A stretch of 64,000 nucleotides of DNA, from the NCBI GenBank assembly GCA_038206135.1, contig JBBRBD010000003.1, positions 4,453 through 68,452 of the forward strand. The letters run 5' to 3'. Position 1 is the stretch's first letter, and each line of letters begins with the position of its first letter. The notes below the pieces were generated by a model that saw only the letters and a program-made list of their open reading frames with translations, was not told where the DNA came from and made no database searches. The translations under genes and the position numbers were made by a program. Positions 32,495 through 57,565 of the stretch are shown one piece after another. Source of the stretch: Patescibacteria group bacterium (GTDB lineage Bacteria; Patescibacteriota; Microgenomatia; UBA8517).

Positions 32495-34522
32495 TTGGAT
32501 TATATGTTAAACAACGGCACAAAATTAAAACAAATCGAGAATATAATACTGATTTCTTTTTTTGTTCTCTTCCCAATTTTCCTCATGCCATCTGTTCAAA
32601 ATCCTGTTGTAACTGCAAAATTGATACTTCTCGCGCTTGCTCTCGCTTTTGTCGTTGTCTTAAAAGCTGTTCGCAATTTAACATCCAAAACCAAAGGGTT
32701 AGTCTTTGCAACATCAAGTTTAGATCTTCCAATAATTCTTCTTGCGATTTCATATATTGTCAGTGGATATTTAGTAACACCTAATAGACTAGAAGCATTT
32801 TGGCTTCCAGGGTCTGCTTCTTTTGTCGTAGGAGGTGCAATATTATATTTTATAATTCGACAACTAACTGAGCGTGGCAGAATTGCAATACGACTCGGTC
32901 TTCTCGGTGGCGGTTCACTTTTAGCATTTTACTCAGTATTAAGCGCTTCAGGAATATTAAAAAGTATCCAGTCTTTTCCTGAATACTTAAAAAGCGACGC
33001 TTTCACACCAGCAGGAAGTGTTTTTGTCTCTGCAATTATCTTTATAGCTATAGCCCCTATTGCGATAGACTTAATTCTCCATGCAGAAAAGTATGTAATT
33101 AAAGTTGGAGCCGGAGTTGCTGCGGGATTATTTGTACTTGCCTTTGTAATATCCTTGTCGGGTGCCATAAAGAATTGGAATGAAACTCAACTTCCAACAA
33201 TGGCTACATCATGGGTAGTTGCGACCGAAAGTTTGAAGTTAAGTCCTTTTACTGGAGTTGGTTCAGGGAACTACTTAAGCGCATTTTCGAGATTTATTCC
33301 TATTTCATACAATGCAACACCACAGTGGAGTATTCGGTTCTCCAATGCTAATAATTTTTATCTGACAGCAATAACTGAAACTGGTCTTATTGGACTCGCT
33401 TCTCTTGTTGTACTGCTAATTGCATTTTATAAAGTTGCCCGTAAGTCGACAACAGATGGGTCAATCTTTGAATATGTCCCAGCAGCCTTATTGTTAGTAG
33501 CACTGTTAATTTTTCCTGGCACTCCAGTTCTAGTTGTACTCTTATTTACTTTACTAGCGCTCACCGGCAGAACTCATATTGTTCATCTCTTTACGCCAGC
33601 TCACGAAGCCGCAACTGCTTCGACTGAAGGCAAATTTGCAACAAACGTAACAGCCGTACCATTTATTGCAGTTGCACTATTTTCATTGTTTCTAGTAAGC
33701 CGTGAGGCTCGCGCTGAAATAACATTTCAAAGATCATTGAATGCCGTAACAGCACAAGATGGGAAACTTGCATATGACACATTGCAATCCGCAATTAATC
33801 AAAGCCCTTATAACGATCGATTCCATCTTACTTATTCACAATTAAACCTTCTTTTGGCAAACACGATAACACAAAAAAAGGAGCTTACTGATGATGATAA
33901 AAATACAATTTCGCAATTAGTTCAGCAAGCTGTTCGAGAAGGTAGAGTTGCAGTTGCACTTAACTCAGATCGATCTGGAAACTGGGTGAACCTCGGAAGT
34001 ATTTATAGAGCTGTTATTCCGCTCGCAAAAGGTGCTGACCAATTTGCTTTGCAAACTTATTCTCAGGCTGTTGTTCTCGATCCTATTAACCCGAATGTCA
34101 GAGTTGCTCTTGGAGGTGTGTACTACGGCTTAAAGCGATATGAAGAAGCAATCGATGTCTTTAGACTTGCAACCAGTGCCAAGCCAGACTTTGCAAACGC
34201 TCACTACAACTTAGCAATTGCATATAGAGACAATGGTCAGTACGACAAAGCCCTTGCCGAATTAACCGGAACTCTTTCGCTCGTACAAAAAGACTCGACA
34301 GATTATCAAGCGATTCAAAAGGAAATTGAAAATGTAAAGAGTAAAGCACCTCAAAAAGCTGCGGCACCTGTACAAACTGATAACCTTACTCCTCCGACAA
34401 AAATTGATGAAAATAAAAACTTAGATGAAAAGATTGCGCTACCAACTGATGCAACACCTGAGGCTGCAATAAATCCAACGCCTGTTGTCACAGCTTCTCC
34501 ACAAGATTCAAGTGCACAATAA
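32495..34522 (+). CDS. Polytopic membrane protein with a Wzy_C/O-antigen-ligase-like core and C-terminal TPR repeats (PglL/PilO-like O-oligosaccharyltransferase candidate)
   Basis: About 10 TM helices. NANNFYLTAITETGLIGL resembles the Wzy_C motif (xHNxyLxxxxExG). The C-terminal TPRs include NAHYNLAIAYRDNGQYDKALAEL. Confidence 0.55.
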   Translation: MDYMLNNGTKLKQIENIILISFFVLFPIFLMPSVQNPVVTAKLILLALALAFVVVLKAVRNLTSKTKGLVFATSSLDLPIILLAISYIVSGYLVTPNRLEAFWLPGSASFVVGGAILYFIIRQLTERGRIAIRLGLLGGGSLLAFYSVLSASGILKSIQSFPEYLKSDAFTPAGSVFVSAIIFIAIAPIAIDLILHAEKYVIKVGAGVAAGLFVLAFVISLSGAIKNWNETQLPTMATSWVVATESLKLSPFTGVGSGNYLSAFSRFIPISYNATPQWSIRFSNANNFYLTAITETGLIGLASLVVLLIAFYKVARKSTTDGSIFEYVPAALLLVALLIFPGTPVLVVLLFTLLALTGRTHIVHLFTPAHEAATASTEGKFATNVTAVPFIAVALFSLFLVSREARAEITFQRSLNAVTAQDGKLAYDTLQSAINQSPYNDRFHLTYSQLNLLLANTITQKKELTDDDKNTISQLVQQAVREGRVAVALNSDRSGNWVNLGSIYRAVIPLAKGADQFALQTYSQAVVLDPINPNVRVALGGVYYGLKRYEEAIDVFRLATSAKPDFANAHYNLAIAYRDNGQYDKALAELTGTLSLVQKDSTDYQAIQKEIENVKSKAPQKAAAPVQTDNLTPPTKIDENKNLDEKIALPTDATPEAAINPTPVVTASPQDSSAQ

Positions 34523-36224: not shown

Positions 36225-37439
36225 TCAAACAGTTTTCAAACTCGTAAGGAAACTTTTATTTTCATCTGTCTTTTCAAGCTTAGACAAAAGCATCTCAGTT
36301 CTCTCATCATCACTCATCATGTCAAGCATCCGTCGCAAAGTTAGAATTTGCTGCATCGTCTCTTTCCCATACAAAAGCTCTTCTTGTCTGGTTCCAGATC
36401 GGGTTACATTAATTGCTGGGAATACTCGTCGCTCTGCAAGTCTTCGGTCTAAATGCAGTTCCATGTTGCCGGTTCCCTTAAATTCTTCATAAACCAAGTC
36501 ATCCATACGTGAACCAGTATCAATTAAACAGGTTCCAATCATAGTGAGTGATCCTCCATTTTCAATTTTTCGTGCTGCTCCAAAGAATTTCTTTGCAGGT
36601 TGCAAAGCTTCAGTGTTAAAACCACCACTCAATGTTCTTCCCGTGTTTGGAAGAGCCAAGTTATAAGCACGAGCTAAACGAGTAATTGAGTCTAGTACAA
36701 TTACGACATCTTTTCCTTCTTCGACAAGTCTCTTTGCACGATCCAAAGCAAGTTCTCCGGCTCGGGTTTGTTCATGAACATCATCGTCAAAATTACTTGC
36801 AGCAACTTGACCTTTACCACCAGTCATTTCTTTCAAACTTCGAGAAATATCAGTTACTTCTTCAGGTCGCTCACCAATAAGCACTGCCATAATTTGCACA
36901 TCTGGATAATTTTTAGCAATTCCGGTGATAATGTCTTTAATAAGCCATGTTTTACCGGCTTTTGGAGGTGAAACGATGAGTCCTCGTTGTCCAAACCCAA
37001 TAGGGGCCACCAAATCAATCATTCTTGTTGTAAGAGTTTCTTTGTCCGTTTCAAGCTTAATTTGTTTGTCAGGATAAATTGCGGTGAGGTTATCAAATTC
37101 AGGGCGCTCTCTCATTTCAACAGCTTCATTTCCATTAACTGTTTCTACTTTCAAAAGTCCCCAGTATCGTTCGTTATCTTTTGGTCTGCGTGCGAGTCCT
37201 CCAACAAGGTCACCATTTCGTAAATTAAATCTTCGAATTTGAGAAGCAGAAATATAAATGTCTTGATTAGAAGGACTAAAATTTGGTCGCACGAGTCCAG
37301 AGCCTTCATTCGCAATGTCTAGAACACCTTCTACTTGTTCAGTTGGAAGGGTTGCATCAGGGATAACTCGATTGTCGACGACGAGCGGTTGCGATGAAGA
37401 CTCATTGTTGTTGTCTTGTGAACTATATTGTTGTGACAT
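36225..37439 (-). CDS. rho: Transcription termination factor Rho
   Basis: N-terminal cold-shock/OB RNA-binding region. Walker A (GLIVSPPKAGKT) and the Q/R loops are present. The stretch …GERPEEVTDI…VLDSITRLARAYN is typical of Rho. Confidence 0.9.
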   Translation of the reverse strand: MSQQYSSQDNNNESSSQPLVVDNRVIPDATLPTEQVEGVLDIANEGSGLVRPNFSPSNQDIYISASQIRRFNLRNGDLVGGLARRPKDNERYWGLLKVETVNGNEAVEMRERPEFDNLTAIYPDKQIKLETDKETLTTRMIDLVAPIGFGQRGLIVSPPKAGKTWLIKDIITGIAKNYPDVQIMAVLIGERPEEVTDISRSLKEMTGGKGQVAASNFDDDVHEQTRAGELALDRAKRLVEEGKDVVIVLDSITRLARAYNLALPNTGRTLSGGFNTEALQPAKKFFGAARKIENGGSLTMIGTCLIDTGSRMDDLVYEEFKGTGNMELHLDRRLAERRVFPAINVTRSGTRQEELLYGKETMQQILTLRRMLDMMSDDERTEMLLSKLEKTDENKSFLTSLKTV

Positions 37440-37969: not shown

Positions 37970-38635
37970 TTATACAGGACTTGCAAATAAAAGTAGTCGT
38001 TTCCAACTTGTCCCCGGTGGATAACAAGTTTGAAGAATAAGCTCTTCTCCGTCTTTTGGCTCAAGCCAGGAAACATCAGTTGCAGAAACAATTTTCTGCC
38101 CAGTTGTTCTATATTGATATATTTTGCCATTGTAATAAATATCAATAGTCTCTCCATTTGGCACTTTTGAAAGATCGTAGAACAATGCATTGTATTTCTG
38201 AATATTTAAAATTGAATTCGTCGAATGGGCAAACAAAAAGATTCGTTCCCCTTGACCAGGAAGCCCTGTTCCTTTGGCTTGTGCTACTCCTTTACTCAAG
38301 GCGTCACTATATTCTTGTTCGTTAAATGGATCAACACTTACGAAAATGTCCGACTTTGTTTTTAAATATGGAATGTAAATTGAAAAAGAAGTGTCGTTTT
38401 TTTTCATTTCCGAGAAGGTTATTTCATTTGAAGCGGCAGATGCTTCTGTTACTTTGCCAACCTGCGTATCAGCGCCATTACTCGGAAGTATTTGAGACTG
38501 AGTAAGCGAACCAAACGAATAGATATAGAGTGCCATTGCAACGCTGGTAAGTCCGGCTCCAACAGTTCGCGTTAGCGTATCTTTTGCACTTCGTTTCCGG
38601 GGAGTAATTACAACACTTCCCTTCGTTTTTCCCAT
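37970..38635 (-). CDS. Sortase family transpeptidase
   Basis: Catalytic His context FLFAHS, the TLxTC-type motif LILQTCYPPG, and a conserved Arg (KRLLLF). N-terminal TM anchor (MGKTKGSVV...LTSVAMALYIYSF). The ORF track starts this ORF at 38725, which overlaps the upstream gene. The internal Met at 38635 is the more likely start. Confidence 0.7.
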   Translation of the reverse strand: MGKTKGSVVITPRKRSAKDTLTRTVGAGLTSVAMALYIYSFGSLTQSQILPSNGADTQVGKVTEASAASNEITFSEMKKNDTSFSIYIPYLKTKSDIFVSVDPFNEQEYSDALSKGVAQAKGTGLPGQGERIFLFAHSTNSILNIQKYNALFYDLSKVPNGETIDIYYNGKIYQYRTTGQKIVSATDVSWLEPKDGEELILQTCYPPGTSWKRLLLFASPV

Positions 38636-38672
38636 TGTGTGGTGATACAGCGTCCCAAAAGGCTTTGTGCCT

Positions 38673-39233
38673 TTATTCGGTGTCTTTTCGAGGTTTTTCA
38701 TAGAGGTATAGTCCATACATTCCAAGCCCTGCTATAAAGATACTTACCCAAAGTTCTGCTCCTGTTTTAGGCAGTGTTGTTCCACTTGTCGGTTTTGTTG
38801 TTGCTGTAGGCACGGCTGATGCATTCAAGCGAGAAACTGGAGTACTAGTCGGAATAACGGTTGGTACTGGTGTTGGGCTCGCAAAAGTTGGATTTCCAGC
38901 TTTATATAAATTACACGAATTTTCATTTTGCTTGACTCGGACTGCACATGACAATCCTTGAGATTGCGCAAAATACAACACTTGTCCGCAACCACTTGGT
39001 GGATTTGCACAAAATGAATCATTTCGACTATCGCTGACCGTTGCAGCACTGTCTTTCAAGTCACACACTCCATCCTGGTTTGTGTCCCCCTTCGGGCAAT
39101 TATATGTTTCACAACGGACGATAGAAGCTCCATCGGCGCACTGTGACCAGTATGTTGTTGTTTGCGCACTAACTACACCCACAGAAAGTGAGCCAATAAA
39201 TAAAGTTGTTGCGAGAGCTATCAAAGTTTTCAT
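38673..39233 (-). CDS. LPXTG cell-wall-anchored surface protein (Cys-rich domain + Thr/Pro linker + LPKTG sorting signal)
   Basis: The signal peptide MKTLIALATTLFIGSLSVGVVSA, 10 Cys in the mature domain, then …TTLPKTGAELWVSIFIAGLGMYGLYLYEKPRKDTE. This is a canonical LPXTG + hydrophobic + basic tail. It sits directly upstream of the sortase gene. Confidence 0.8.
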   Translation of the reverse strand: MKTLIALATTLFIGSLSVGVVSAQTTTYWSQCADGASIVRCETYNCPKGDTNQDGVCDLKDSAATVSDSRNDSFCANPPSGCGQVLYFAQSQGLSCAVRVKQNENSCNLYKAGNPTFASPTPVPTVIPTSTPVSRLNASAVPTATTKPTSGTTLPKTGAELWVSIFIAGLGMYGLYLYEKPRKDTE

Positions 39234-39379
39234 GAAATAAATGAATTGGCAAAAGATTTACCAAAAATGAAGAATTGATCATTCTATCCTATAAAGGAAC
39301 AATTGTCAATGCACCCAATAGAAAGCAAAAAAGCCAGTGAGTGTCCATCTCACTGGCTTAATAAAAAAACTACTAAAAA

Positions 39380-40102
39380 CTAGCGAATACTGACGGCATG
39401 TGGCCCGTCACATTGAAGGTGCGTGAGTGCGTTGTAAACGCTCACATAAACGTTCTTCACCTTCTTGTCTGACAATACCAAGTCAAAAGGCAAATTGTAG
39501 TGGTCGGACCCAATTCCGTAGCTCCCACTCAAATCCGGATCAGACTGAACAGACCATACTTTTGTGCCTTCAGTCGAGCTGACAACGACAGTATAGGGTC
39601 GAGCGCCTTCTCCCATCTTCTGGATAAACACGGTCAACGTATTCGACTTCTTGTCGTAGCTGACGGCAAAGCCGCTGGCCACATAAAAGCGACAGTCATC
39701 CACGCCGTGGCCCATCAGGGCATAATTGACACCCGGAACTGATGTTGTAGTTCCACCAGTTGTCGGAGGCGCGGGATCCCACTCGGGGATATGAACATTC
39801 AGTGATGAGCATTCAGTGCCCGGAACAGCCAAGGAAATCAACTGGTTATTCCGAGGTACAGCATTATAATCAAGGTCGATTCCTCCGCTCCAGCCATCGC
39901 CAACTGTAATAGTCGGACCATTCGGCCATGTCAACTGACCATCTGTGCCACCGGTGTGGACTTCAATTTCCACATGATTGACAGTTTGACTGACCTTAGT
40001 CACGGAGCACGCCGAATCTGCGGCCATTGTTGCTGCAACTGGAACCAAAGTCAGCAGGCTCGATACAAAAAATGCCAATGCCAAAACTAAATTGCGTTTC
40101 AT
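39380..40102 (-). CDS. Secreted hypothetical protein
   Basis: Signal peptide MKRNLVLALAFFVSSLLTLVPVAATMA. No anchor and no recognised domain. Confidence 0.5.
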   Translation of the reverse strand: MKRNLVLALAFFVSSLLTLVPVAATMAADSACSVTKVSQTVNHVEIEVHTGGTDGQLTWPNGPTITVGDGWSGGIDLDYNAVPRNNQLISLAVPGTECSSLNVHIPEWDPAPPTTGGTTTSVPGVNYALMGHGVDDCRFYVASGFAVSYDKKSNTLTVFIQKMGEGARPYTVVVSSTEGTKVWSVQSDPDLSGSYGIGSDHYNLPFDLVLSDKKVKNVYVSVYNALTHLQCDGPHAVSIR

Positions 40103-40191
40103 TGTGAAAAATCTCCCTACAAATATACGAATTATGAAACCTTTTGAGTTATGTACTCAAATGAGCTCCACAAGTTACTTACTATAGCATA

Positions 40192-43100
40192 CTATTTGGA
40201 TTTAATCAAGCTATAGGTTGCTACTATTAATATTCCAAATCCTAAAAACTCGAGAGCTTCTGGTAGATAAAAGATATATAAAATGTTCGTGTTTTCAGGC
40301 ACAACCCAACCGTTTTCCCAACCATTTACTGTTATGTGTTCAAGTTTTTTACCACTAACTGATAGTGCGATCCACCCATTCTCATACGCTTGATTAAATG
40401 CCACTATTCCCTTTCCAGTTGTTTCCACTTTAGTTATTAATCCAGCGCTTGCCGTATGTCTAACTTTCAGTTCGTTATTTGAAACAATCGATTCTTTTGG
40501 ACCAATTCCAATTTCAGAAAGCCAATTCAAGGGTATTGGTGAAAATGAAATTTCAGTAAGTGAATTTTGAGATGCAATAGAGTCAAAGGCTCTTGTTTCA
40601 AGATTTACAACATATCCACCATCACCACTGGCAAATGGTAATAATGTATATTCTTGTGAGAATGTATTTTTAGGAAGTAGTTCCTCCGTGTCCATGTGTT
40701 CAGATTGCTTATTTTCTAAATAAAACTTCACACTTCTTCCGGATTCGTTGTGTCCTGATATTTTCATGACATAAGCTTGGGTTTGTAATAGCTGAGGATA
40801 ATCGAAATAATCACAACTCACACCGTTATTGGAAGCTTTATATACTACTTCGTTCCCTATAAAGTTCTTAGTAACTTCCCCCTTTTCAGGAACCGAACAA
40901 TTAACCGCAGTTGAGTGCCCTCTTTGTAGTAAGAAGTTTTCTGAAATGATTTGGGACTCAAAATATGAGACTGAAATTTGGTGAACGCTCTCGAGAGGAA
41001 TATTCTGTTCACTCGCAAAGATGCCATAATTGGATCCAAAGTCTACATAATTCCGAGAAATTTCAGGGTAATACTTCAGATTTAAATTATCGTAAGTTGA
41101 CACTGAAGCTGCATTCGGCTGAGATTGTCCGACAAATGCAAACCAATAATTTCCCGACTCCAAAGGAGTCATTGATTTGATAGTACGCCCTCCAAAAACT
41201 TCTGTTGCGGTTGGTGGCAACACGTTCACACAACCGTCCTTCCCAATTTGGTTTAAACAAAAGAGGGAGCTACTCCCTGTTGGACTCATAAATGTAGTCT
41301 CATAGAGGGCTGATTTTGAAAGTGTCACGAGTGAGCCAATACAAACGGATTGATCATGACTGGTCAAACTAAATCCATTTGGAAGGGTTGTAAGTCCTCC
41401 TTCATTTGTCGGATCAATACACCAAGATGCATTTTTATCCTTTAGGTCAGATAAGAAACCTTTGTTTTCAATAGGATTTTTAGTAAATAATTGTAATTTT
41501 GTTTTCCCCGTTGAATTGACATCAATTACGCCTATCGCATGAAATGACTCGTCTGTTTGTATGTCTGAAATATCAAAAACTGTACTTTCTATTGCCAAAT
41601 ATCCTGCATTAGCATTACTCGACAAACTGGTCGTAATGTAAACGGGGCTTGAATCTAGTTCTTTTCCATCAATTGAAATTTTTGGTTGAATTAAATCTAG
41701 TCGCACACTTATGTTTAGTTTGGTTTTCAAGACAGAGACCTTAACCGGCAAAACCGCTTCACGCTTCACAATATTTGGGATAGTCAAACTTTGGTTTTTA
41801 AGCTCAGGTGTGGTTGCTTTCAGAGTAATCCAGTTGTTTTCGGATGTTGAATTCATTTCACGAGAATCAAAGTTTACGAATGGTTTCCATACTCCACCGA
41901 GCCCAGAAACATAAGTGCCATATTGATCAAATGCATAATCAACAGGAGAATACGTAGCATTTGCTGACACTTTTGAATATGGTGACGGGGTCGTAACATC
42001 CGACTGTTGAATATCTAACTTATATATTTCAATAAAACCATACGTAGCTACCTTTTGGATGTGTGGTACCTTTGACAAAAATTTCTCTGTATCTTTTGAT
42101 AATTTTGTTTTGTCAGTTACTCCTGGATCAAATATTGAACCATCAAGAACAAGATACTGTACTTGGTATTTTTCAAGAAGTGAGTGGAAAGTCTCGGTAT
42201 CATTTGCATAATACGAACGACTCAATTCTTTGTAAAAAGTTTCATTTTGTGCATTCCAACGATCGAAGTCTCGCGTTAGATACGGGTTATCAACTCCAAA
42301 CCAGAAGAACCCAGCACCTTGATATCCCCATGAGTTATATTGCCAACCCCACATGGTGTTTAAAGGCATTTGTGCAATTCTGCCTGTATTTCCCTTAAAC
42401 CAGTTAAATGCATCAAAGTATTCAGTCGGAATTGAGACACGCATTAAAGGGCTCACGAGACCGTCTGAAAATGCGGGCTTCATAAGTAACCCTAAACTGG
42501 AAAGAAGAAAAACAACTAGTACGAATGGAATTATTACTAACTTTTTAATTTTTGAAATAACTTCGAACAAAAATGCTAGAAAGAAAGCAGCATAATATGC
42601 CAAGAAGAAGCTAAATATCGTCGAGAACTTAGTAAAGGAGTCTCGAAAACCTTCGGCTAAAATACCACTGTGGCTTTGTAAAAATGTATAGAAACCTCCA
42701 AATGGACCGTTTATATTCATAAGTACAAATATAGACAGTACTGTTGGAATAATGAGTGAAACGCCTAATTTGTTTTTCTTAAAAATGGAAACTATGATTC
42801 CCAAAAGTGATAAAACCGCAAATAGAGTTGGGATAGCGGCAATTGCTGGATTTGATAAATGACTGTTCCAATTTGAAAGTAAATCAACGAATGCATTTTT
42901 TTGAAAGTCGTATGCTTGCCATGAGAATAAATAATTCTTTTGAGATATGACATTCACTAAACTCCCCCATGCTTCATTATGTAAAACAGCTTCAGGGGTA
43001 AACAATTCATTGATGTGAGCACTCGCAATTTCTTGCGACTGGTTTTTAATTGAATACAAATTTGGAAGGAGCCAATACGCGTTTGTCGCAAAAAGTGCAA

Positions 43101-43851
43101 CCAGAATAAGTGCTGCATTTCGAATAGCATTTTTATTGACTCTTGTTAACACTGCATACACCAAAATTGTTATTGAAAATAGGGCTGCATATGCGTAGAA
43201 AAGTGTTGCTGCATACGCTTGTGAACTGCCTAAGAAACTCGCAATTACAAAGGTCACCAGATATCTCTTTTTGCTTGTTTCTAAATAAGAAATGGCTGAC
43301 AAAAACAACCACGGCAAAACCGCAAACTGAGTGGTGAACATTTCAAATGGAACTGCAAAACGTTGGACTGTTCCCAGATTAAGTACATAACTAGCAGCAC
43401 CAACTGTAGCAGCAAGGAGAGCCGCCGTGGAAGTACTTTTATTAAAGAACTTTTTAAGCGCAAAAAACATTCCTACAGGCCCAACAATTAAACACAAGAA
43501 TACATATGAATAGCGTAAAAATTGAAGCGGCAACACAAATGAAGTTAATTTTAAGTATAAAAGTCTTGGCAATTCACTCATATGAGAGTGAGCGGCAATT
43601 GCACCTAACCCTTGGTCACTTCTCCATACACCATTTAAGACTGAGGAAAAAGCATGAGTAAAGTTAAATTCAGGGTGCAAAGTATCCCATCCGGTTAAAA
43701 ATGTGTTTGGAGTGTAGCTTTTAAAGCACAGCCAAAGTGTTATTAAAAAAATGGTGAACGGAAGCACCCACGAAGATATGCCTAAAGGCATAGTGGGCTT
43801 AACTATCTTTTTTCGAAGATGTGTGAATACTTTTGAAAGTATTTTTTTCAT
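40192..43851 (-). CDS. Large (1,219 aa) polytopic membrane protein: ~13 N-terminal TM helices, a ~650-aa extracytoplasmic domain and a C-terminal TM helix. GT-C-like glycosyltransferase candidate (YfhO/AftD-like).
   Basis: The hydrophobic helix pattern runs through residue ~480. There is a WD motif in the first extracytoplasmic loop (TGWDTLHPEF). A long beta-rich C-terminal region ends in LGFGILIVATYSLIKSK. The family assignment is inference only. Confidence 0.4.
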   Translation of the reverse strand: MKKILSKVFTHLRKKIVKPTMPLGISSWVLPFTIFLITLWLCFKSYTPNTFLTGWDTLHPEFNFTHAFSSVLNGVWRSDQGLGAIAAHSHMSELPRLLYLKLTSFVLPLQFLRYSYVFLCLIVGPVGMFFALKKFFNKSTSTAALLAATVGAASYVLNLGTVQRFAVPFEMFTTQFAVLPWLFLSAISYLETSKKRYLVTFVIASFLGSSQAYAATLFYAYAALFSITILVYAVLTRVNKNAIRNAALILVALFATNAYWLLPNLYSIKNQSQEIASAHINELFTPEAVLHNEAWGSLVNVISQKNYLFSWQAYDFQKNAFVDLLSNWNSHLSNPAIAAIPTLFAVLSLLGIIVSIFKKNKLGVSLIIPTVLSIFVLMNINGPFGGFYTFLQSHSGILAEGFRDSFTKFSTIFSFFLAYYAAFFLAFLFEVISKIKKLVIIPFVLVVFLLSSLGLLMKPAFSDGLVSPLMRVSIPTEYFDAFNWFKGNTGRIAQMPLNTMWGWQYNSWGYQGAGFFWFGVDNPYLTRDFDRWNAQNETFYKELSRSYYANDTETFHSLLEKYQVQYLVLDGSIFDPGVTDKTKLSKDTEKFLSKVPHIQKVATYGFIEIYKLDIQQSDVTTPSPYSKVSANATYSPVDYAFDQYGTYVSGLGGVWKPFVNFDSREMNSTSENNWITLKATTPELKNQSLTIPNIVKREAVLPVKVSVLKTKLNISVRLDLIQPKISIDGKELDSSPVYITTSLSSNANAGYLAIESTVFDISDIQTDESFHAIGVIDVNSTGKTKLQLFTKNPIENKGFLSDLKDKNASWCIDPTNEGGLTTLPNGFSLTSHDQSVCIGSLVTLSKSALYETTFMSPTGSSSLFCLNQIGKDGCVNVLPPTATEVFGGRTIKSMTPLESGNYWFAFVGQSQPNAASVSTYDNLNLKYYPEISRNYVDFGSNYGIFASEQNIPLESVHQISVSYFESQIISENFLLQRGHSTAVNCSVPEKGEVTKNFIGNEVVYKASNNGVSCDYFDYPQLLQTQAYVMKISGHNESGRSVKFYLENKQSEHMDTEELLPKNTFSQEYTLLPFASGDGGYVVNLETRAFDSIASQNSLTEISFSPIPLNWLSEIGIGPKESIVSNNELKVRHTASAGLITKVETTGKGIVAFNQAYENGWIALSVSGKKLEHITVNGWENGWVVPENTNILYIFYLPEALEFLGFGILIVATYSLIKSK

Positions 43852-43939
43852 CCCTCAACTAACAATATATAAATTATAAGTTCAGGTGATGATGGGGACG
43901 AGTTTTTAATACTCGTCCCCTCATTAGACAATTGAGGTT

Positions 43940-44881
43940 TTAAGGTGCAGGTGTTGCCGTCGCCGGAATAATATCAGTGGGTAACGGCGGCGCTGGTTTC
44001 AAGTACTCAGTTAAGTCCTCATAACCAGTTTTTTTATTATACGCACCGAACAATGCCGGTATCCAGTTCACACCGTCATAGGTGATAAAGGCGTGGATAT
44101 TCACGACATCACAATAGGTGATTTCGTTTTGTTTGGTACCTTTAATGCTCGCGCAGTTCTTTGGATTCAACTTAGCATAGGGCAACTCGCCTTTTGGCGT
44201 TTCTGCCCATGCTTTGATCGCGGGCTTACTTTCGTAAACCATCATCTTGATTTGTGCTGCCACCACAGAGCCTATTTCATCGCCGGTCAAACCATCTTTG
44301 CTGGAGTAATAACCCCAGTAGCAACCGTAACTTTCAACCAAGCCCAACGAGCCCGGAGCAATCGGTTTGCCAGACAAATTCACAAAGGTGGAGATGTCGG
44401 TCTCGCTACCCGTTAATCCAACGGCGCGCATCCCGACAGGGATCCAATTGCCTTCTCCAAGCCGTTTCATCAACGGATCAAATAAATCAGGCAAAATGGA
44501 ATACGGATATTCGCTGGCTTCGAGGCCGACAACGCCATATAGACTGGCATATTGAGCCTTCGTTCCTGCGGGCATATCCTGAAATAGGTATGGAGCGTCG
44601 CACGTCATGATAATACCGCTGTTATTTGGAAGTGCAATCGGACCAGAGGCCGCGGCACCTTCCTTTGTTGAACAGGGAAAACGGGTATCAAGAGGGTTCG
44701 CGTCGAAGCACTTTGGTGCAACGGGCACCCAGATTACAGAATCAACGGCATAGTCAGGCAGTTTATCAGCGCCAGTAGGCGGTGGAGGCACGGTAACCCG
44801 TTCCGCTCCAAGCACACTCCCCAGGCTGAAAACCGAAAACAAAATTGCCAAAGACAAACTTAAGAACAGTGACTTACGCAT
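43940..44881 (-). CDS. Secreted hypothetical protein
   Basis: Signal peptide MRKSLFLSLSLAILFSVFSLGSVLGA and a Pro-rich C-terminus. Confidence 0.5.
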   Translation of the reverse strand: MRKSLFLSLSLAILFSVFSLGSVLGAERVTVPPPPTGADKLPDYAVDSVIWVPVAPKCFDANPLDTRFPCSTKEGAAASGPIALPNNSGIIMTCDAPYLFQDMPAGTKAQYASLYGVVGLEASEYPYSILPDLFDPLMKRLGEGNWIPVGMRAVGLTGSETDISTFVNLSGKPIAPGSLGLVESYGCYWGYYSSKDGLTGDEIGSVVAAQIKMMVYESKPAIKAWAETPKGELPYAKLNPKNCASIKGTKQNEITYCDVVNIHAFITYDGVNWIPALFGAYNKKTGYEDLTEYLKPAPPLPTDIIPATATPAP

Positions 44882-44981
44882 AGCGTTTCTCCTTATTTTT
44901 TTACGTTTTGAACTGAAAAAACCTCTCTGGAAGCTTGTCTAGAGCTTATTTGCCAGAGTGAGTTTTTTCAGTATGTTTTTG

Positions 44982-45245
44982 TTAAAGTGCAGCTCTTTTT
45001 GATTTTAAATACAAAACACCAGAAAGAGTGACAAAAGCAAAACCAATGAGGGGCAAATTGAAGTCAGCAATTCCTGTTTTAACGGGGGTGTGAAACTCTG
45101 GAGTTGCTGCACCACAAACGACTGCTCCTCCGTACTGAGTAACACAGGTTGTTTCTGCATACGCAAAAACAGGGCTCATTAACATGGCCATCGATAAAAT
45201 AAAACTGATTACAAATTTTTTAATCATAAAATTCTTTAAAATCAC
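44982..45245 (-). CDS. Small (87 aa) secreted protein with a C-terminal sorting-signal-like tail (…TPVKTGIADF + TM + KSKR). Candidate sortase substrate.
   Basis: Signal peptide MILKNFMIKKFVISFILSMAMLMSPVFAYA. The mature ~57 aa carry 2 Cys. The C-terminus is KTGIADFNLPLIGFAFVTLSGVLYLKSKRAAL. Located immediately downstream of a sortase gene. Confidence 0.55.
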   Translation of the reverse strand: MILKNFMIKKFVISFILSMAMLMSPVFAYAETTCVTQYGGAVVCGAATPEFHTPVKTGIADFNLPLIGFAFVTLSGVLYLKSKRAAL

Positions 45246-45304
45246 AACTACCTGAAGGATTGAATACTATATCATGACATAAACCTATTGTCAACAACTA
45301 CAGG

Positions 45305-46009
45305 TTATACTTGCAACAACTTCGCATAAACAATTACTCGGATATCTGAAGTTAAGTCTTCACAAGTGTACAAAACAAGGTCAGCATTGTAATCAGTAAT
45401 TGTCTTTGATTCTTCTTTTTTGTATATGCCATACACGTATTTTCGCTGTCGCCAGACGATTTCAATGACGTCACCTTCTTTTACTTTTGGTAAATTATAA
45501 AAGGATTGATGTAATCTAAAATCTAAACTCCAGGCTAAATAGCCAAATCTATGTGCTGCAAGAATAGTTGGAGCCTCACGGTTATATGGCGTTCCAAAGT
45601 CATTCACCCGCCAAACGCCTTGTTTTAGAGCATCCTCATAATTACCGTCAAGTGCTTCTTCAATAGATGTTTTTATGCCTACAGATGATATTGAAATACT
45701 GTTTGTAACCGGTAAACTTGAATCAAATGCAGGCTGGTAACTATACCTTTTTTCGGCTGGCAAATCTTTCGCTGACACAGTTCCTCGTAAAATTGCAGAA
45801 ATTCCAGCACTTCCCTCTAGTGAATAATACAGAGATGGTCCGTATGAAATGGCCAGAAAAAGAAGCCCAACACCTGCAAGCGCAAATGAAATTTTTTGAG
45901 TTAGTGAGCGCATCTTTGGAGCAGCAATACCTTTAGCCTCGTATTCCACAACGAATGCCTCCGGGAAAGGAGGTGCTTCAAATAAACTAGCAGGTAAATA
46001 TAATTGCAT
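45305..46009 (-). CDS. Sortase family transpeptidase (second copy)
   Basis: Catalytic His TILAAHRFGY, the GDVIEIV…YVYGIY beta strands, the Cys motif LVLYTCEDL, and Arg IRVIVYA. The probable true start is the internal Met at 45913 (MRSLTQKISFALAGVGLLFLAI gives the TM anchor). Confidence 0.7.
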   Translation of the reverse strand: MQLYLPASLFEAPPFPEAFVVEYEAKGIAAPKMRSLTQKISFALAGVGLLFLAISYGPSLYYSLEGSAGISAILRGTVSAKDLPAEKRYSYQPAFDSSLPVTNSISISSVGIKTSIEEALDGNYEDALKQGVWRVNDFGTPYNREAPTILAAHRFGYLAWSLDFRLHQSFYNLPKVKEGDVIEIVWRQRKYVYGIYKKEESKTITDYNADLVLYTCEDLTSDIRVIVYAKLLQV

Positions 46010-46356
46010 AAGTGTATATAGTATTTTTGGAAGTGCTTAAAAAAATCAGCCGTGTGAGACGGAGGTAGTGTCACCTGCCCTTTGACACCAACCTCCGGCC
46101 CCCAAAGCCGATTCTCCTTTTACTTGACAACCCAATTCAATCAGGTTAGTCTTAAACTAATCAAATTTGCATCGCTTTCCGCTACGGTTCATTAGTCGTG
46201 TGTCGACTAACTTTCCCAACGATTGTGATGCTTTTTTGTGCGTAGCGTACTATATCATCCACAATGGTTTTTGTCAATTGAGCGTGGATGAATTTTTGTG
46301 GTTTTTAGGCACAAAAGGACCCCCAAACAGGGGGCCATCGAAAATCGAGAAAACCT

Positions 46357-46848: not shown

Positions 46849-48162
46849 TTATCTGAATATTTTCTTCACTAATTGCTGTAAATTTGAGGCTGTTGAGTGA
46901 CTATATACTGTTTTTAGTCCTTGGCGCTTGGCTTGTCTCATACGCTCTCCTTCGCGCAACACCGGTCGAATTTCCCCTAGCAAACCGACCTCTCCAATTG
47001 CAATACTTCCGTCTGGAAGCGCTTTATTTAGAACTGAACTTGCAAGGGACAATGCGATTGCAAGATCTGCCCCCGGCTCTTTTACATTAATTCCCCCCAC
47101 TACATTTACAAATACATCGTGGTCATAAAGAGGAAGTCGAACATGTTTTGTTAAAACGGCCAAAATAACATCAACTCGTTTTGCGTCAACACCAGAAGCA
47201 ACTCTTCTTGGAATCGGCATTTTTGTCGGAACAACTAAAGACTGAACCTCAACCAGAAGCGGACGGGAGCCTTCAAGCACTGAGGTGACGACTGACCCCG
47301 GTGCCGCTTCATGTGCATTTAAAAAGGCAGATTCAATGTCCACAACATTTACTAACCCCTCTTCCTGCATTCTGAATACGCCAATCTCGTCAGTTGCTCC
47401 AAAGCGGTTTTTAATTGAGCGAAGTATTCGTAAGTCCCGTTCGGTTTCCCCTTCAAACCAGCAAACGGTATCAACCATATGTGCAAGTGTTGCAGGACCC
47501 GCGACTGAACCTCCTTTCGTGATTTGCCCAACAAGAACAATCGGTACTTTATGCTTTTTTGCAAAGCGGGTAAGCCGGTGAGCACACTCTCTCACCTGTC
47601 CCACTGACCCAGGAATGCCCATCAAGTCTCGTGTTGAAATAGTTTGAATAGAATCAACAACAACAAGGCTTGGTGGCTTTTGGGAGGTGACCATGTCTTC
47701 CAATGTTGAAATAACTACATCAACATCAGTTACATCGAGTATTTCAATGTGAGAGGCATCAAGCTTTAATCTGTCTGATCGAATTTTAATTTGTATTGGA
47801 GATTCTTCACCTGCCACATACATACAAAGGTTTGCTTTTGCAGCAACTTGCAGTAAAAGTGTGGACTTCCCAATGCCAGGTTCACCAGCTAAAAGCACCA
47901 CATGTCCGGGGACAAGACCTCCACCCAAAACTCTATCAAGTTCCTCAATATTTGTTTGAGTGCGAACCAATGTTTCATTTTTAAGTGATGACAATATAAC
48001 TGGAGTTGCTGATCTGGCTGAAGAACCTGAAGACTTTTGACTTTCTTCGGGAAGTGTTTCAACAAGTGTTCCCCACTGATCACAATTCGGGCATTTTCCA
48101 GCCCATTTTGATTGTGAGTATCCACAGTTTTGACAAACATACAGTGAGTGTACTTTGGCCAT
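46849..48162 (-). CDS. radA: DNA repair protein RadA/Sms
   Basis: N-terminal C4 zinc finger (CQNCGYSQSKWAGKCPNC), Walker A GEPGIGKST, the KNRFG motif, and a C-terminal Lon-protease-like domain. Confidence 0.9.
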   Translation of the reverse strand: MAKVHSLYVCQNCGYSQSKWAGKCPNCDQWGTLVETLPEESQKSSGSSARSATPVILSSLKNETLVRTQTNIEELDRVLGGGLVPGHVVLLAGEPGIGKSTLLLQVAAKANLCMYVAGEESPIQIKIRSDRLKLDASHIEILDVTDVDVVISTLEDMVTSQKPPSLVVVDSIQTISTRDLMGIPGSVGQVRECAHRLTRFAKKHKVPIVLVGQITKGGSVAGPATLAHMVDTVCWFEGETERDLRILRSIKNRFGATDEIGVFRMQEEGLVNVVDIESAFLNAHEAAPGSVVTSVLEGSRPLLVEVQSLVVPTKMPIPRRVASGVDAKRVDVILAVLTKHVRLPLYDHDVFVNVVGGINVKEPGADLAIALSLASSVLNKALPDGSIAIGEVGLLGEIRPVLREGERMRQAKRQGLKTVYSHSTASNLQQLVKKIFR

Positions 48163-48211: not shown

Positions 48212-48709
48212 TTAATATTCGCTCGCGTAGTGAGTCATTAAATGACCAACGTTCTTTTGAACTTGGACAATTTGCTTGGAATCGTTTGTTATTGCTTTAC
48301 CATTTTGGTCAACGAGTCTAATAAAAACGACATCTCCATCTTTGACGGAACTTGAGAGCAGTATCTCAACATTTTTAGTGTCACCAGTCTGTAATAAAGC
48401 GCTCTTGCCGATAACAGCTTCTTTACTGTCATTACGAATTACATATAAATATGAAGGCTGAGAGACAGATACCTCATCTGCTGTAACTTTGTTTCCTGGG
48501 TCTACAATACCCACACTAATTGTAAAACCACTGGTTGGTTCCGGGTTAGTTCGCGCCTCAACAGGTGGCAGTGTAGGTAAAGCTTCAGCAACAAACCTTG
48601 ATTGTTTACTATATAAAAATATAGCTGCAAGTAGAAAAAGAACCAATATAACAACAATCACTAAAGCGTTACCTGTCTTCGATTTCTTGGGGTAGGATGC
48701 GGTATTCAT
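48212..48709 (-). CDS. Membrane-anchored hypothetical protein
   Basis: The N-terminus is a signal-anchor (ALVIVVILVLFLLAAIFLY). No recognised domain. Confidence 0.45.
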   Translation of the reverse strand: MNTASYPKKSKTGNALVIVVILVLFLLAAIFLYSKQSRFVAEALPTLPPVEARTNPEPTSGFTISVGIVDPGNKVTADEVSVSQPSYLYVIRNDSKEAVIGKSALLQTGDTKNVEILLSSSVKDGDVVFIRLVDQNGKAITNDSKQIVQVQKNVGHLMTHYASEY

Positions 48710-48712
48710 ATC

Positions 48713-50539
48713 TTAGTTTTTCAGACCTAAGCCTGGGGCACAAGTAGATTCTTGATATTTGAATTGAACAAAGCTTCCAGACGTTGCTAATATGAGTCCT
48801 CCATATTGAGTCAAGCTTCCGGCATCCGAGGTATTTGCTGATGAAATTGTCTGCTTTACAACTCCTCCGTCCACTACGTTTCCATAGACATCTGTGTAGT
48901 AAGTCTGAGACTTTCCCTTGTTATACCACATAAGTGGTCCTGTATATGCTTCTCTTACACATCCTCTGTCCTGAGTCCGATCATCATTGAATTTAAAGAT
49001 TTGAGAACGAGCAAGTGGATCCCATGAATAAATAAGTTTAGTTTTGTCAGCAGGATCCATAACAGTAATTGGATCAAAAACGGCAGTCGACACAACTGCT
49101 GTTGCAACTGGATTCCCTTTATTAACAATACTTAAAGTGTCTAACCAAATTTCATACGGTGAATCAAGCTTACATCCAAGCCCCATGACCGTTCGTGATT
49201 GTCTAGGATCATCACAAATAGTTCCGACGTTCCCTACATCAGCAAGGCCCGCAATATCCATTCGTACACCAGTTGCAGTTCTTACATGAAAATCAAGTGA
49301 ATGGAACTGTGTCGTGAAACGACCGGCTCCTCCAGTACCCATATGGAAACAATAGTAAGTATCCATTAATGCAACTCCACCTTCATTATTAGTCAAACCC
49401 TTGTTTTGAACAAAACACTTAAATCCTACATGAGGCTCATCCATTCCAGCTAAATGTGGAACGTAGTCAAATGGAACTGGTCCTGCATAAATATTACTTT
49501 TTGCTGGATCATCGCCATGCTCGTGTGCAAACGTGCATTTCACGCCTGAGGGTTTTGCAGCGTCTACAGAAACTGTCTGTGGATGCCAAGTGCGGTACAG
49601 CACTCCATCTGGTCCACGAACAACATATCTGTCATGAACATTTGCAGGACAGTTGCCCAAGATATCAACAGAAGTTGCACCATAAATTGCTTCAGTTGAA
49701 GAGATAGGAGAAGCAGTTGGAGACATACTCATCGTAGGCGGCATTGTGGTTGTAGGTGTTGGTGATCCTCCACCGACAATTGGTGATGATGTTGGCCGTA
49801 AACTAGCCGTAGGAGCAACTGTCGCAGTTGCTGTTGGTTTTGCGGTCGCTGTAGGAGTAGGACTCGCAGTCGGTGTACTTGTTGCACCAGCACCAGTTGC
49901 ATACACAACTGTTAACTTCGGAGATTTTCCAGTTGAAGGGTTTCCATAAATGTCTTTTCTTCCCCATTGACCACCGCTCCCTTTTGCAATCAAAGTAATA
50001 AAAGTAGCTCCTTGTGAATTAACGAGCTCTGAAACTGGAGCAGTTACATCAAACGAATAAGTTGTATTTGCATCCCATTTTACGTTGTCTGAATAAGCCA
50101 TATTACTTGAAGTAAGCGTTCTGCTTGAAGGTTTAGAGCCAGAAGAAAAATTTCCGACTTTCGAGGTATCTGCATAAAAAGTAGAAGAAACTGTAATCCA
50201 AGAACCAGTAGCGGTGAACTCCACTTTTGCAGATTTGATCTGAGCATTAGCTGGAATATTACCACCAGTAAAATTCAATCCAAGATATGAGCTAGAAACG
50301 CTTTGTGCGTTCCCATACCATGCTTTATTTGCTCCCATCGTGAGTGTACTTCCATCTTGATTTGCAATAGCGTTCGCGCTTTCAATTGAAAATTGAGTAG
50401 AAGACTCAGAAAGAACTGCTGCATTACTTTTTGAATTAGCTTTGAATTGTGAAGAAAATACTGCAATTCCAACTGAAAGAATGCCGATAACTGCCAGTGC
50501 TGCTAAAGGTAGTGACCCTTTTCGGTTATTTAAACGCAT
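48713..50539 (-). CDS. Secreted hypothetical protein with a Thr/Pro/Ala-rich linker
   Basis: Signal peptide MRLNNRKGSLPLAALAVIGILSVGIAVFSS, the linker TSTPTASPTPTATAKPTATATVAPTAS…, and a Cys-containing C-terminal domain. Confidence 0.5.
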   Translation of the reverse strand: MRLNNRKGSLPLAALAVIGILSVGIAVFSSQFKANSKSNAAVLSESSTQFSIESANAIANQDGSTLTMGANKAWYGNAQSVSSSYLGLNFTGGNIPANAQIKSAKVEFTATGSWITVSSTFYADTSKVGNFSSGSKPSSRTLTSSNMAYSDNVKWDANTTYSFDVTAPVSELVNSQGATFITLIAKGSGGQWGRKDIYGNPSTGKSPKLTVVYATGAGATSTPTASPTPTATAKPTATATVAPTASLRPTSSPIVGGGSPTPTTTMPPTMSMSPTASPISSTEAIYGATSVDILGNCPANVHDRYVVRGPDGVLYRTWHPQTVSVDAAKPSGVKCTFAHEHGDDPAKSNIYAGPVPFDYVPHLAGMDEPHVGFKCFVQNKGLTNNEGGVALMDTYYCFHMGTGGAGRFTTQFHSLDFHVRTATGVRMDIAGLADVGNVGTICDDPRQSRTVMGLGCKLDSPYEIWLDTLSIVNKGNPVATAVVSTAVFDPITVMDPADKTKLIYSWDPLARSQIFKFNDDRTQDRGCVREAYTGPLMWYNKGKSQTYYTDVYGNVVDGGVVKQTISSANTSDAGSLTQYGGLILATSGSFVQFKYQESTCAPGLGLKN

Positions 50540-53830: not shown

Positions 53831-53943
53831 GTTTTGAATTCAAAATAAACTATAAAAGAACACTAATCTTATTTCTAAAAAATTTGTGCTCTAAAAGCTC
53901 AAGGAGAAAGGTCCGTAAGTCATTTTCGACTGATTCGTACATT

Positions 53944-57395
<3,452 letters not shown>

Positions 57396-57488: not shown

Positions 57489-57565
57489 TGGTGGACCTGA
57501 AGGGACTCGAACCCTTGGCCTCATCATTGCAAATGATGCGCTCTAGCCAACTGAGCTACAGGCCC
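57489..57565 (-). tRNA. tRNA-Ala (anticodon TGC), CCA encoded
   Basis: Reverse complement: GGGCCTGTAGCTCAGTTGGCTAGAGCGCATCATTTGCAATGATGAGGCCAAGGGTTCGAGTCCCTTCAGGTCCACCA. It has a cloverleaf with the G3:U70 alanine identity pair, anticodon loop TTTGCAA, and a GTTCGAGTC T-loop. Confidence 0.9.

Follow-up and report, generated by a model that had tools for sequence, protein, structure and literature searches.

A 64,000-nucleotide (nt) stretch of a Patescibacteria group bacterium genome (assembly GCA_038206135.1, contig JBBRBD010000003.1, positions 4,453 to 68,452; hereafter the window, a 64-kb stretch) contains, in the conserved slot between radA and rho of a Microgenomates-type genome of the Candidate Phyla Radiation (CPR), two adjacent and autonomous cell-surface modules. 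The first, module A, is a conserved cluster comprising a structured RNA, a sortase (srt1), a very short candidate sortase substrate (p87), a variable secreted protein (p313), a giant AftD-like membrane glycosyltransferase of the GT-C kind (hereafter GT-C), and a second secreted protein (p240); the second, module B, consists of p186 followed by srt2, an autonomous pair of one sortase and a single substrate. The linkage of srt1-type sortase, substrate and GT-C genes is near-obligate among relatives, and glycosylation by GT-C may be coupled in module A to anchoring by srt1 of a substrate that bears a characteristic YGG loop, a reading that seems to us about equally apt to be right or wrong. The parts are of known kinds, and what is new is their association, the mini-substrate and its motif. 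The CPR (Patescibacteria) account for much of bacterial diversity, and next to nothing is known of how they build their envelope. Sortases are nearly universal in Microgenomates (PMC6744442), and their targets and partners there were previously undescribed.

A preliminary description of this region, drawn from the DNA letters and the translated open reading frames (ORFs), had recognised seven minus-strand genes, all of which are present (Table 1) and have a homologue or an exact copy in the databases, the closest relatives of the window proteins all coming from metagenome-assembled genomes (MAGs) of Microgenomates/Woesebacteria-type CPR bacteria. The flanks are housekeeping in nature: radA (46849-48162), rho (36225-37439), an M23/LysM peptidase, tRNA synthetases and an rRNA operon. 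The same description took the seven genes for one operon in which two sortases bracket a common cargo as in a pilus locus, and neither part of this view has held. A terminator-like hairpin followed by a sigma70-like promoter splits p240 from p186. In the related locus L081 (L-numbers denote fetched relative loci, and f-numbers ORF families clustered from them), which keeps the entire arrangement of the window, an analogous hairpin of different sequence stands at the same place, with a promoter-like TTGACT...TATACT at the equivalent position before p186. Because of this terminator and promoter between p240 and p186, found also in L081, the layout is one of two units, and a single operon of all seven genes is unlikely. 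Inside module A, p87 has a promoter of its own, whose TTGACA and -10-like elements recur at the same place in L081, L001, L005 and L012, and the gaps between genes are 59-100 nt. Each sortase is paired with its own neighbouring substrate; the pair of p186 and a sortase recurs in L081-L085, and module B is considered autonomous because in L083, L084 and L085 this pair occurs with srt1 and GT-C both absent, these loci comprising radA, a p186 homologue, a sortase and rho alone.

Module A was followed through two sets of relatives, one of 80 genome loci centred on GT-C homologues, whose ORFs were clustered and of which 42 extend at least 5 kb on both sides, and the other of 80 metagenome loci centred on srt1-type sortases. 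A same-strand gene for p87 or for a member of the related substrate family f5 occurs in 41 of the 42 fully flanked GT-C loci (median substrate-GT-C distance 1.6 kb over all 80 loci), a sortase in 28, a family 2 glycosyltransferase (GT2; PF00535, E 8e-30) adjoining GT-C in 15, and a PMT_2 GT-C in 10. Seen from the sortase, p87 lies immediately downstream in 55 of 63 srt1-type loci, and GT-C is encoded on the same strand in every srt1-type locus that has at least 7 kb of downstream sequence (21/21). Three gene orders recur: radA, srt1, p87, one to four secreted proteins, GT-C and rho in Woesebacteria-type loci; a PMT_2 GT-C, GT-C, a 200-250-amino-acid (aa) LPKTG/LPETG protein (f5), a sortase and rho in WWE3-type loci; and an f5 protein, secreted proteins, often a GT2, and GT-C in Levybacteria-type loci, where radA and rho are inverted. 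The substrate gene thus lies upstream of GT-C in the Woesebacteria- and Levybacteria-type loci and downstream in the WWE3-type ones, so that the linkage outlasts rearrangement. Module A is probably a lineage-wide cell-surface assembly cluster, and apparently an undescribed one: a literature search found no description of the cluster in Patescibacteria and no paper linking AftD-type enzymes with sortases. Comparison across loci shows a conserved linkage in module A and, in departure from the preliminary description, that modules A and B are separable. Many public MAG records that carry the cluster (L002, L005, L008, L010 and others) bear the title "uncultured Gammaproteobacteria bacterium", and some titles even name Bacteroidota or Methylococcaceae; these records resemble Microgenomates in both gene content and synteny and are likely mislabelled or mis-binned.

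Table 1. Coordinates of the genes, RNA and signals of the two modules, numbered from the first letter of the window (TM, transmembrane).
Feature	Coordinates	Strand	Characteristics
Conserved structured RNA or leader, ~250 nt	46030..46284	-	Own promoter, terminal hairpin
srt1, sortase 1, 234 aa, membrane-anchored, candidate CPR-specific clade	45305..46009	-	Pfam PF04203
Sigma70-like promoter of p87	45266..45294	-	TTGACA-17-TATAGT with extended TG; 11/12 consensus positions
p87, mini-substrate (candidate)	44982..45245	-	Signal peptide, C-x3-YGG-x3-C loop, H-T-P-V-K-T-G, TM segment, basic tail
p313, secreted, variable slot between p87 and GT-C	43940..44881	-	Signal peptide, Pro/Thr-rich C-terminus
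GT-C, AftD-like glycosyltransferase (predicted), 1,219 aa	40192..43851	-	TM bundle, soluble domain, CBM-like beta-sandwiches, C-terminal TM helix
p240, secreted two-repeat protein, last gene of first transcription unit	39380..40102	-	Signal-like N-terminus
Terminator-like intrinsic hairpin directly 3' of p240	39331..39359	-	11-bp stem (6 GC pairs), then T-run
Sigma70-like promoter preceding p186	39281..39309	-	TTGACA-17-TAGAAT
p186, canonical sortase substrate	38673..39233	-	Signal peptide, ~80-aa 8-Cys domain (GDTNxDG), Pro/Thr-rich stalk, LPKTG, TM, basic tail
srt2, sortase 2, dedicated p186 partner	37970..38725 (TTG) or 37970..38635 (ATG)	-	Pfam PF04203; start ambiguous

Both sortase genes do encode sortases, as had been proposed. 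Against a Pfam cutoff of 26.6 bits for PF04203, srt1 scores 41.2 (E 1.7e-10) and srt2 63.6 (E 2e-17), and the catalytic His, Cys and Arg of each align with those of solved sortases. In srt1 the segments AAHRFGY, LYTC and IRV align with SrtA (3rcc), which gives His153, Cys216 and Arg224 as the catalytic residues; His153 and Cys216 are invariant across its clade (15 members), where position 224 is occupied by R or K. In srt2 the segments FAHS, LQTC and KRLLL align with the H, TC and R of the class C sortase 8t28, class C sortases being its best solved relatives (E 3e-8). Assignment to a class by the NCBIfam class models failed for both, which fall under every class cutoff, that of class C included: the best class-model score of srt1 is 18.3 bits against a cutoff of 39.35, and srt2 reaches 59.3 against 140 for the SrtD-type model, 51 against 165 for class D and 49.7 against 160 for class C. 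A neighbour-joining tree divides the sortases into three clades in step with their substrates, srt1 grouping with p87-adjacent and srt2 with f5-adjacent sortases, and the srt1 clade is distinct; both enzymes appear to represent unclassified CPR sortase clades. Known dedicated sortase-target pairs, such as the class GN "marine" type (TIGR03784) and SrtD with LPxTATN (NF058671/NF058670), likewise place one sortase beside one substrate and, as in this locus, have a clade-specific sorting motif and sortase clades that co-vary with substrates, and srt1 and srt2 score far under the cutoffs of those models.

The substrate candidate p87 probably starts at ATG 45227 (81 aa), which is also NCBI's call. 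It had been described as a secreted peptide with a tail resembling a sorting signal, and it does have a signal peptide, and its tail scores above the TIGR01167 cutoff (18.0 bits against 15.9), yet the pentapeptide is P-V-K-T-G and not LPXTG. The predicted mature anchored peptide has about 27 aa (ETTCVTQYGGAVVCGAATPEFHTPVKT), and the candidate target of srt1 is the PVKTG-type peptide AATPEFHTPVKTGIADFN. In the p87 family the tail has the consensus H-[EKT]-P-V-[ED]-T-[GDA]-[LI]-[GA]-D, followed by a TM segment and K/R, with the form H-x-P-V-[ED]-T-[GDA]-[LI]-[GA]-D in 62 of 82 unique tails; the family alignment has no conserved Lys. The f5 proteins are larger (200-250 aa, most about 226 aa) and contain a DUF11 domain and a sorting signal, and at the mature N-terminus they have a C-x3-YGG-x3-C loop, which recurs with identical spacing in p87, there followed directly by the sorting signal. 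This loop is found in 18 of 26 p87 and 26 of 39 f5 sequences, versus a single one of 1264 other ORFs, itself a p87 homologue, and comparison of p87 with f5 N-termini by hhalign returned 94.8% probability. WWE3-type f5 members bear a canonical LPKTG or LPETG and have a sortase adjacent. From these sequence comparisons, p87 appears to be the minimal member of a YGG-loop substrate family, with H-x-P-V-E/K-T-G as a candidate non-canonical sorting motif. To our knowledge, this srt1 motif together with a mature substrate of about 27 aa matches no described system.

That p87 and f5 might not be sortase substrates at all, and might instead be membrane-tethered subunits or regulators that engage GT-C through the YGG loop, in the way of accessory subunits of oligosaccharyltransferase or of the acyl carrier protein (ACP) bound to AftD, is suggested by a linkage to GT-C (41/42) tighter than that to the sortase (28/42) and by the loop being the only element common to p87 and f5. 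We consider this very unlikely in view of the full tripartite architecture of a sorting signal in the p87 tail and its passing TIGR01167, the adjacency of p87 to srt1 in 55/63 loci, and the canonical LPKTG/LPETG of WWE3-type members encoded beside a sortase. In some relatives a protein of 100-165 aa with 3-4 TM segments is encoded directly after p87 (L004:5416-5715, L007:1679-2035, L022:3936-4433, L049:3670-4005, L077:8540-8905); there is none in the window, and Pfam, in which these proteins match no family, gives no support for a GtrA-type flippase.

The largest protein of module A had been described as a polytopic membrane protein with a large outside domain and a likeness to GT-C enzymes, and both features are recovered, the second at the level of fold. 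An alternative start at 43791 (1,199 aa) is NCBI's call. The window protein has no match in NCBIfam and none in Pfam even at E 10, PF11847 included. The one part of AftD that a profile built from 32 homologues matches is the C-terminal domain (E 2.5e-5), and two of the 32 match PF11847 (GT-C_AftD; best 8.6e-6) and two PF10131. An AlphaFold2 model based on 62 homologues (predicted local distance difference test score, pLDDT, 93.1; predicted template modelling score 0.90) comprises an N-terminal TM bundle, a mixed alpha/beta soluble domain, a beta-rich ectodomain of about 700 aa and a single C-terminal TM helix, and a Foldseek search with it places AftD first, over the full length (E 5e-17). The profile match, the homologues matching PF11847 and PF10131, the model and the Foldseek result together confirm the GT-C guess at fold level: the protein is predicted to have a GT-C fold and the architecture of AftD, and lies outside AftD as a sequence family. 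A GWD56xLHPE61 motif occupies the loop after TM1, and D56, a putative active-site residue, and E61 are invariant in the alignments of 32 and of 62 homologues; in GT-C enzymes the first loop after TM1 is the site of the catalytic acidic residue, and in AftD D41 is essential. The family is large, with about 1,800 representatives at 50% identity.

AftD (6W98/6WBX; PF11847) and the window GT-C have the same architecture, with an N-terminal TM region, a long ectodomain of carbohydrate-binding modules (CBMs) and a C-terminal TM region, whereas the two sequences are no more than 12-17% identical and PF11847 does not match the window protein. AftD has a multi-helix C-terminal region and 16 TM segments in total, as against one C-terminal TM helix in the window protein; it binds ACP, whereas no ACP partner is known for the window GT-C; and it is not linked to sortase substrates, as the window GT-C is. 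AftD homologues have been reported in Actinobacteria only, whereas the present protein is from a CPR bacterium. We know of no arabinogalactan or lipoarabinomannan in CPR bacteria.

These elements can be assembled into a tentative sequence of events. All GT-C enzymes use polyprenyl-phosphate sugar, and GT-C of module A would act as a polyprenyl-phosphate-sugar-dependent glycosyltransferase on the outward side of the membrane, where its CBM-like ectodomain might hold the glycan acceptor and where it could modify the YGG-loop protein directly or add sugar to a glycan that accompanies this protein. We infer here the sugar donor, the acceptor and the biochemical coupling to the sortase substrate. 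For its part, srt1 would process p87 at the non-canonical H-x-P-V-(E/K)-T-G signal, and the sortase would then attach the glycosylated product covalently to the wall; in module B, srt2 would cleave the LPKTG signal of p186 and fix that protein to the wall. That GT-C might polymerise the cargo had also been entertained; polymerisation of this kind lies outside the activity of GT-C enzymes. Extracytoplasmic glycosylation is known to run on pairs of a GT-A and a GT-C enzyme (PMC8035078), a scheme with which the GT2 genes adjoining GT-C in relatives accord. In CsbB/GtcA/YfhO-type transmembrane glycosylation a GT-A/GT2 enzyme makes the polyprenyl-phosphate sugar and a large GT-C with an extracellular carbohydrate-binding region transfers the sugar outside (PMC8035078), and the flanking of GT-C by a GT2 in 15/42 related loci is a likeness to such systems; they co-encode a GT2 and a GtrA flippase, whereas the window has neither, and their acceptors are teichoic acids or wall polysaccharides, no characterised system being genetically coupled to a sortase and its substrate. 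For glycosylation of a sortase substrate at the membrane before wall anchoring there is a precedent in the SrtA-GspA-LcpA pathway of Actinomyces oris (PMC6381275), where, in contrast to the present locus, the glycosylating enzyme is a LytR-CpsA-Psr phosphotransferase and not a GT-C, GspA is an LPXTG protein of normal size, and the genes form no conserved sortase-substrate-glycosyltransferase cluster.

Several points weigh against such a coupling. Levybacteria-type loci carry the substrate gene and have no sortase within 10 kb; synteny in at least 40 loci extends to radA, rho and the M23 peptidase as well, which makes it possible that the linkage is in part inherited gene order; and the loci are phylogenetically related, so that the counts are not of independent events. 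Scans of the 64-kb window with an f10 hidden Markov model and Pfam found no adjacent GT2 or GtrA-type flippase. Large CBM ectodomains of the AftD type normally bind glycans, not peptides, so that GT-C may have as its acceptor some wall polysaccharide that has nothing to do with p87. On these grounds one may picture GT-C as building or decorating a secondary wall glycopolymer, like AftD or YfhO, with the sortase pairs as biochemically unrelated occupants of a stable envelope slot between radA and rho. This would suit the CBM-like ectodomain and the rank of AftD as top match, the conservation nearby, too, of radA, rho, the M23 peptidase and a Wzy_C/TPR (tetratricopeptide repeat) protein, the independence of module B from GT-C and the Levybacteria-type GT-C loci that have no sortase nearby. 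We find it possible and rather doubtful, since the pairing of substrate and GT-C outlasts the inversions and reorderings that break the radA and rho arrangement, is always co-directional, with gaps of 59-100 nt inside module A, and at 41/42 and 21/21 exceeds the linkage to any housekeeping neighbour. A further scheme, in which the mature ~27-aa p87 and the YGG loop of its DUF11 relatives would serve as a peptide adaptor or primer for a GT-C glycan and srt1 would ligate the resulting glycopeptide to peptidoglycan, we regard as unlikely.

The locus, then, defines a probably lineage-wide cluster in which a divergent sortase is joined by a minimal substrate bearing what may be a new recognition motif, and the tie of this pair to an AftD-like GT-C extends the AftD architecture, as predicted, well outside Actinobacteria. 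The components are small and well defined: the peptide has 27 aa, the sortase domain is soluble and the model of GT-C is a confident one. The proposed coupling of anchoring and glycosylation is therefore testable in vitro without cultivation.

The substrate of module B is of a more familiar sort. As had been described, p186 is an LPKTG-anchored, Cys-rich protein: its C-terminus ends in TLPKTGAELWVSIFIAGLGMYGLYLYEKPRKDTE, comprising LPKTG, a hydrophobic segment and a basic tail, and among 43 homologues found (family proteins of about 185 aa), an alignment of 40 has all 8 Cys invariant, together with the L, P, T and G of L-P-x-T-G. An AlphaFold2 model consists of a small beta domain (pLDDT about 80-86) on a disordered stalk, and a comparison with solved folds in the PDB found no match (best E 1.8), whether to pilins, to Ig folds or to others. 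Membership of p186 in the YGG-loop/DUF11 family was ruled out, the score being 9.7 bits only and the loop motif absent. The two secreted proteins p313 and p240, which had been taken to be secreted and do have signal-like N-terminal segments, lack a sorting signal. The pilin-like isopeptide or Ig folds that had been thought possible among the cargo did not appear on structure prediction: p186 has no such match, p87 has about 27 mature residues, and the model indicates that p186 is not a pilin.

These results bear on the idea that the locus assembles a pilus or fibre, with two sortases polymerising and anchoring the enclosed secreted proteins and GT-C decorating the polymer. The idea draws on the presence of two sortases in one neighbourhood, on class C pilus sortases as the closest solved relatives of srt2, features shared with Gram-positive pili of the SpaA type, and on the DUF11 domain in the substrate family of relatives. 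It seems to us highly improbable, given that p313 and p240 are without sorting signals, that each sortase has exactly one adjacent substrate, that NCBIfam class C scores are 49.7 (srt2) and 14 bits against a cutoff of 160, that p186 has no Ig- or Cna-like fold, that p87 has so few mature residues and no conserved Lys, and that the modules are separable, with a terminator between them; in contrast to Gram-positive pili, the locus lacks pilin-type Ig/Cna domains, the pilin-motif Lys and the E-box. The recently described CPR Pam pilus system (bioRxiv 10.64898/2026.03.03.709456) is unrelated, being based on chaperone-usher-like donor-strand exchange and encoded by an operon with neither sortase nor GT-C.

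Of the proteins without sorting signals, p313 has no match in Pfam or NCBIfam, a search of 5.8 billion proteins gave no homologue outside its own genome, and a homologue was detected in the fetched locus L001 (2e-20); judged by sequence, it seems to be an orphan or fast-evolving protein. Its slot in relatives is held by families with no detectable mutual homology (f8, f14, f17 and f22), and shared ancestry of these and p313 was rejected, all hhalign probabilities being at most 7%. Homologues of p240 lie downstream of GT-C in L001, L002 and L081, and p240 compares by hhalign with f27, which is upstream of GT-C in other loci, at 85.5% probability (E 5.6e-6).

Module A opens with the structured RNA, situated between radA and the sortase/GT-C cluster. 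It has a sigma70-like promoter (TTGACA-17-TATAGT at 46277-46249), terminates in the window with a long hairpin and a U-run, some 30 nt ahead of the start codon of srt1, and folds with a minimum free energy of -75.8 kcal/mol (z -5.4 versus shuffles). Its nucleotide identity is 81% with L081 and L001, where the proteins are 62-72% identical, and iterative nhmmer searches of 166 sequences, the window and 165 fetched loci, recovered it from 105 of them, examples being L089:9633-9926, L081:617-872 and L037:13533-13848. Compensatory changes occur at 20 of 28 pairs of the 3' hairpin and, as checked by hand, at three pairs in each of the helices P1 and P2; the loop motifs AGGACAGG and AGGGCAGG and GGCAGG-containing loops are conserved. 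RNAalifold applied to a MAFFT alignment did not recover the 5' domain. Rfam 15 has no matching family, E-value scans of the window and L089 giving only chance microRNA-like matches. The RNA lies directly upstream of srt1 and ends about 16 nt before it in 56 of 57 metagenome loci, which suggests a leader or attenuator that controls module A; Rfam 15 lacks this RNA, whose position would allow it to gate the operon. It stands ahead of p186 in L083-85, and in Levybacteria-type loci it is found downstream of GT-C, facing convergent genes, so that a pure cis-leader is only one possibility; the RNA may be an operon leader or a novel small RNA. In Levybacteria loci it is overlapped by 60-aa ORFs (f16) that were probably called spuriously.

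Further features of the window lie outside the two modules. The 23S rRNA match at 53911-57389 (minus strand) spans 3,479 nt versus a 2,925-nt model that is covered end to end, with about 550 nt inserted as an intron or insertion, and introns or insertions in rRNA genes have often been reported for CPR bacteria; a tRNA-Ala(UGC) lies at 57489-57565, and no 16S rRNA was reported in the window. On the plus strand, a 2,852-aa ORF at 325-8883 has no Pfam domain at E 1e-4 and belongs to a family (f23) with 6 members in related loci. It is followed at 10368-14831 and 14828-19321 (plus strand) by tandem paralogous giants of about 1,490 aa, with 5-6 Laminin_G_3/ConA-like lectin repeats, DUF2341 and a domain like the receptor-binding one of clostridial toxins, and then by a protein of 887 aa that matches GH16 weakly (19353-22016, plus strand); all three are probably surface adhesins or glycan-binding proteins. 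Just upstream of radA, 48212-50539 (minus strand) encodes two more secreted or membrane-anchored proteins, one of 165 aa with DUF7282 and one of 608 aa with no Pfam domain and a long linker rich in Pro, Thr and Ala, such as O-glycosylated stalks typically have. On the rho/M23 side, the Wzy_C/TPR protein mentioned above (32495-34522, plus strand; family f9, in 21 loci) has 675 aa, 10 TM segments, a weak Wzy_C (O-antigen ligase-like) region and C-terminal TPR repeats, and is another candidate envelope glycan enzyme.

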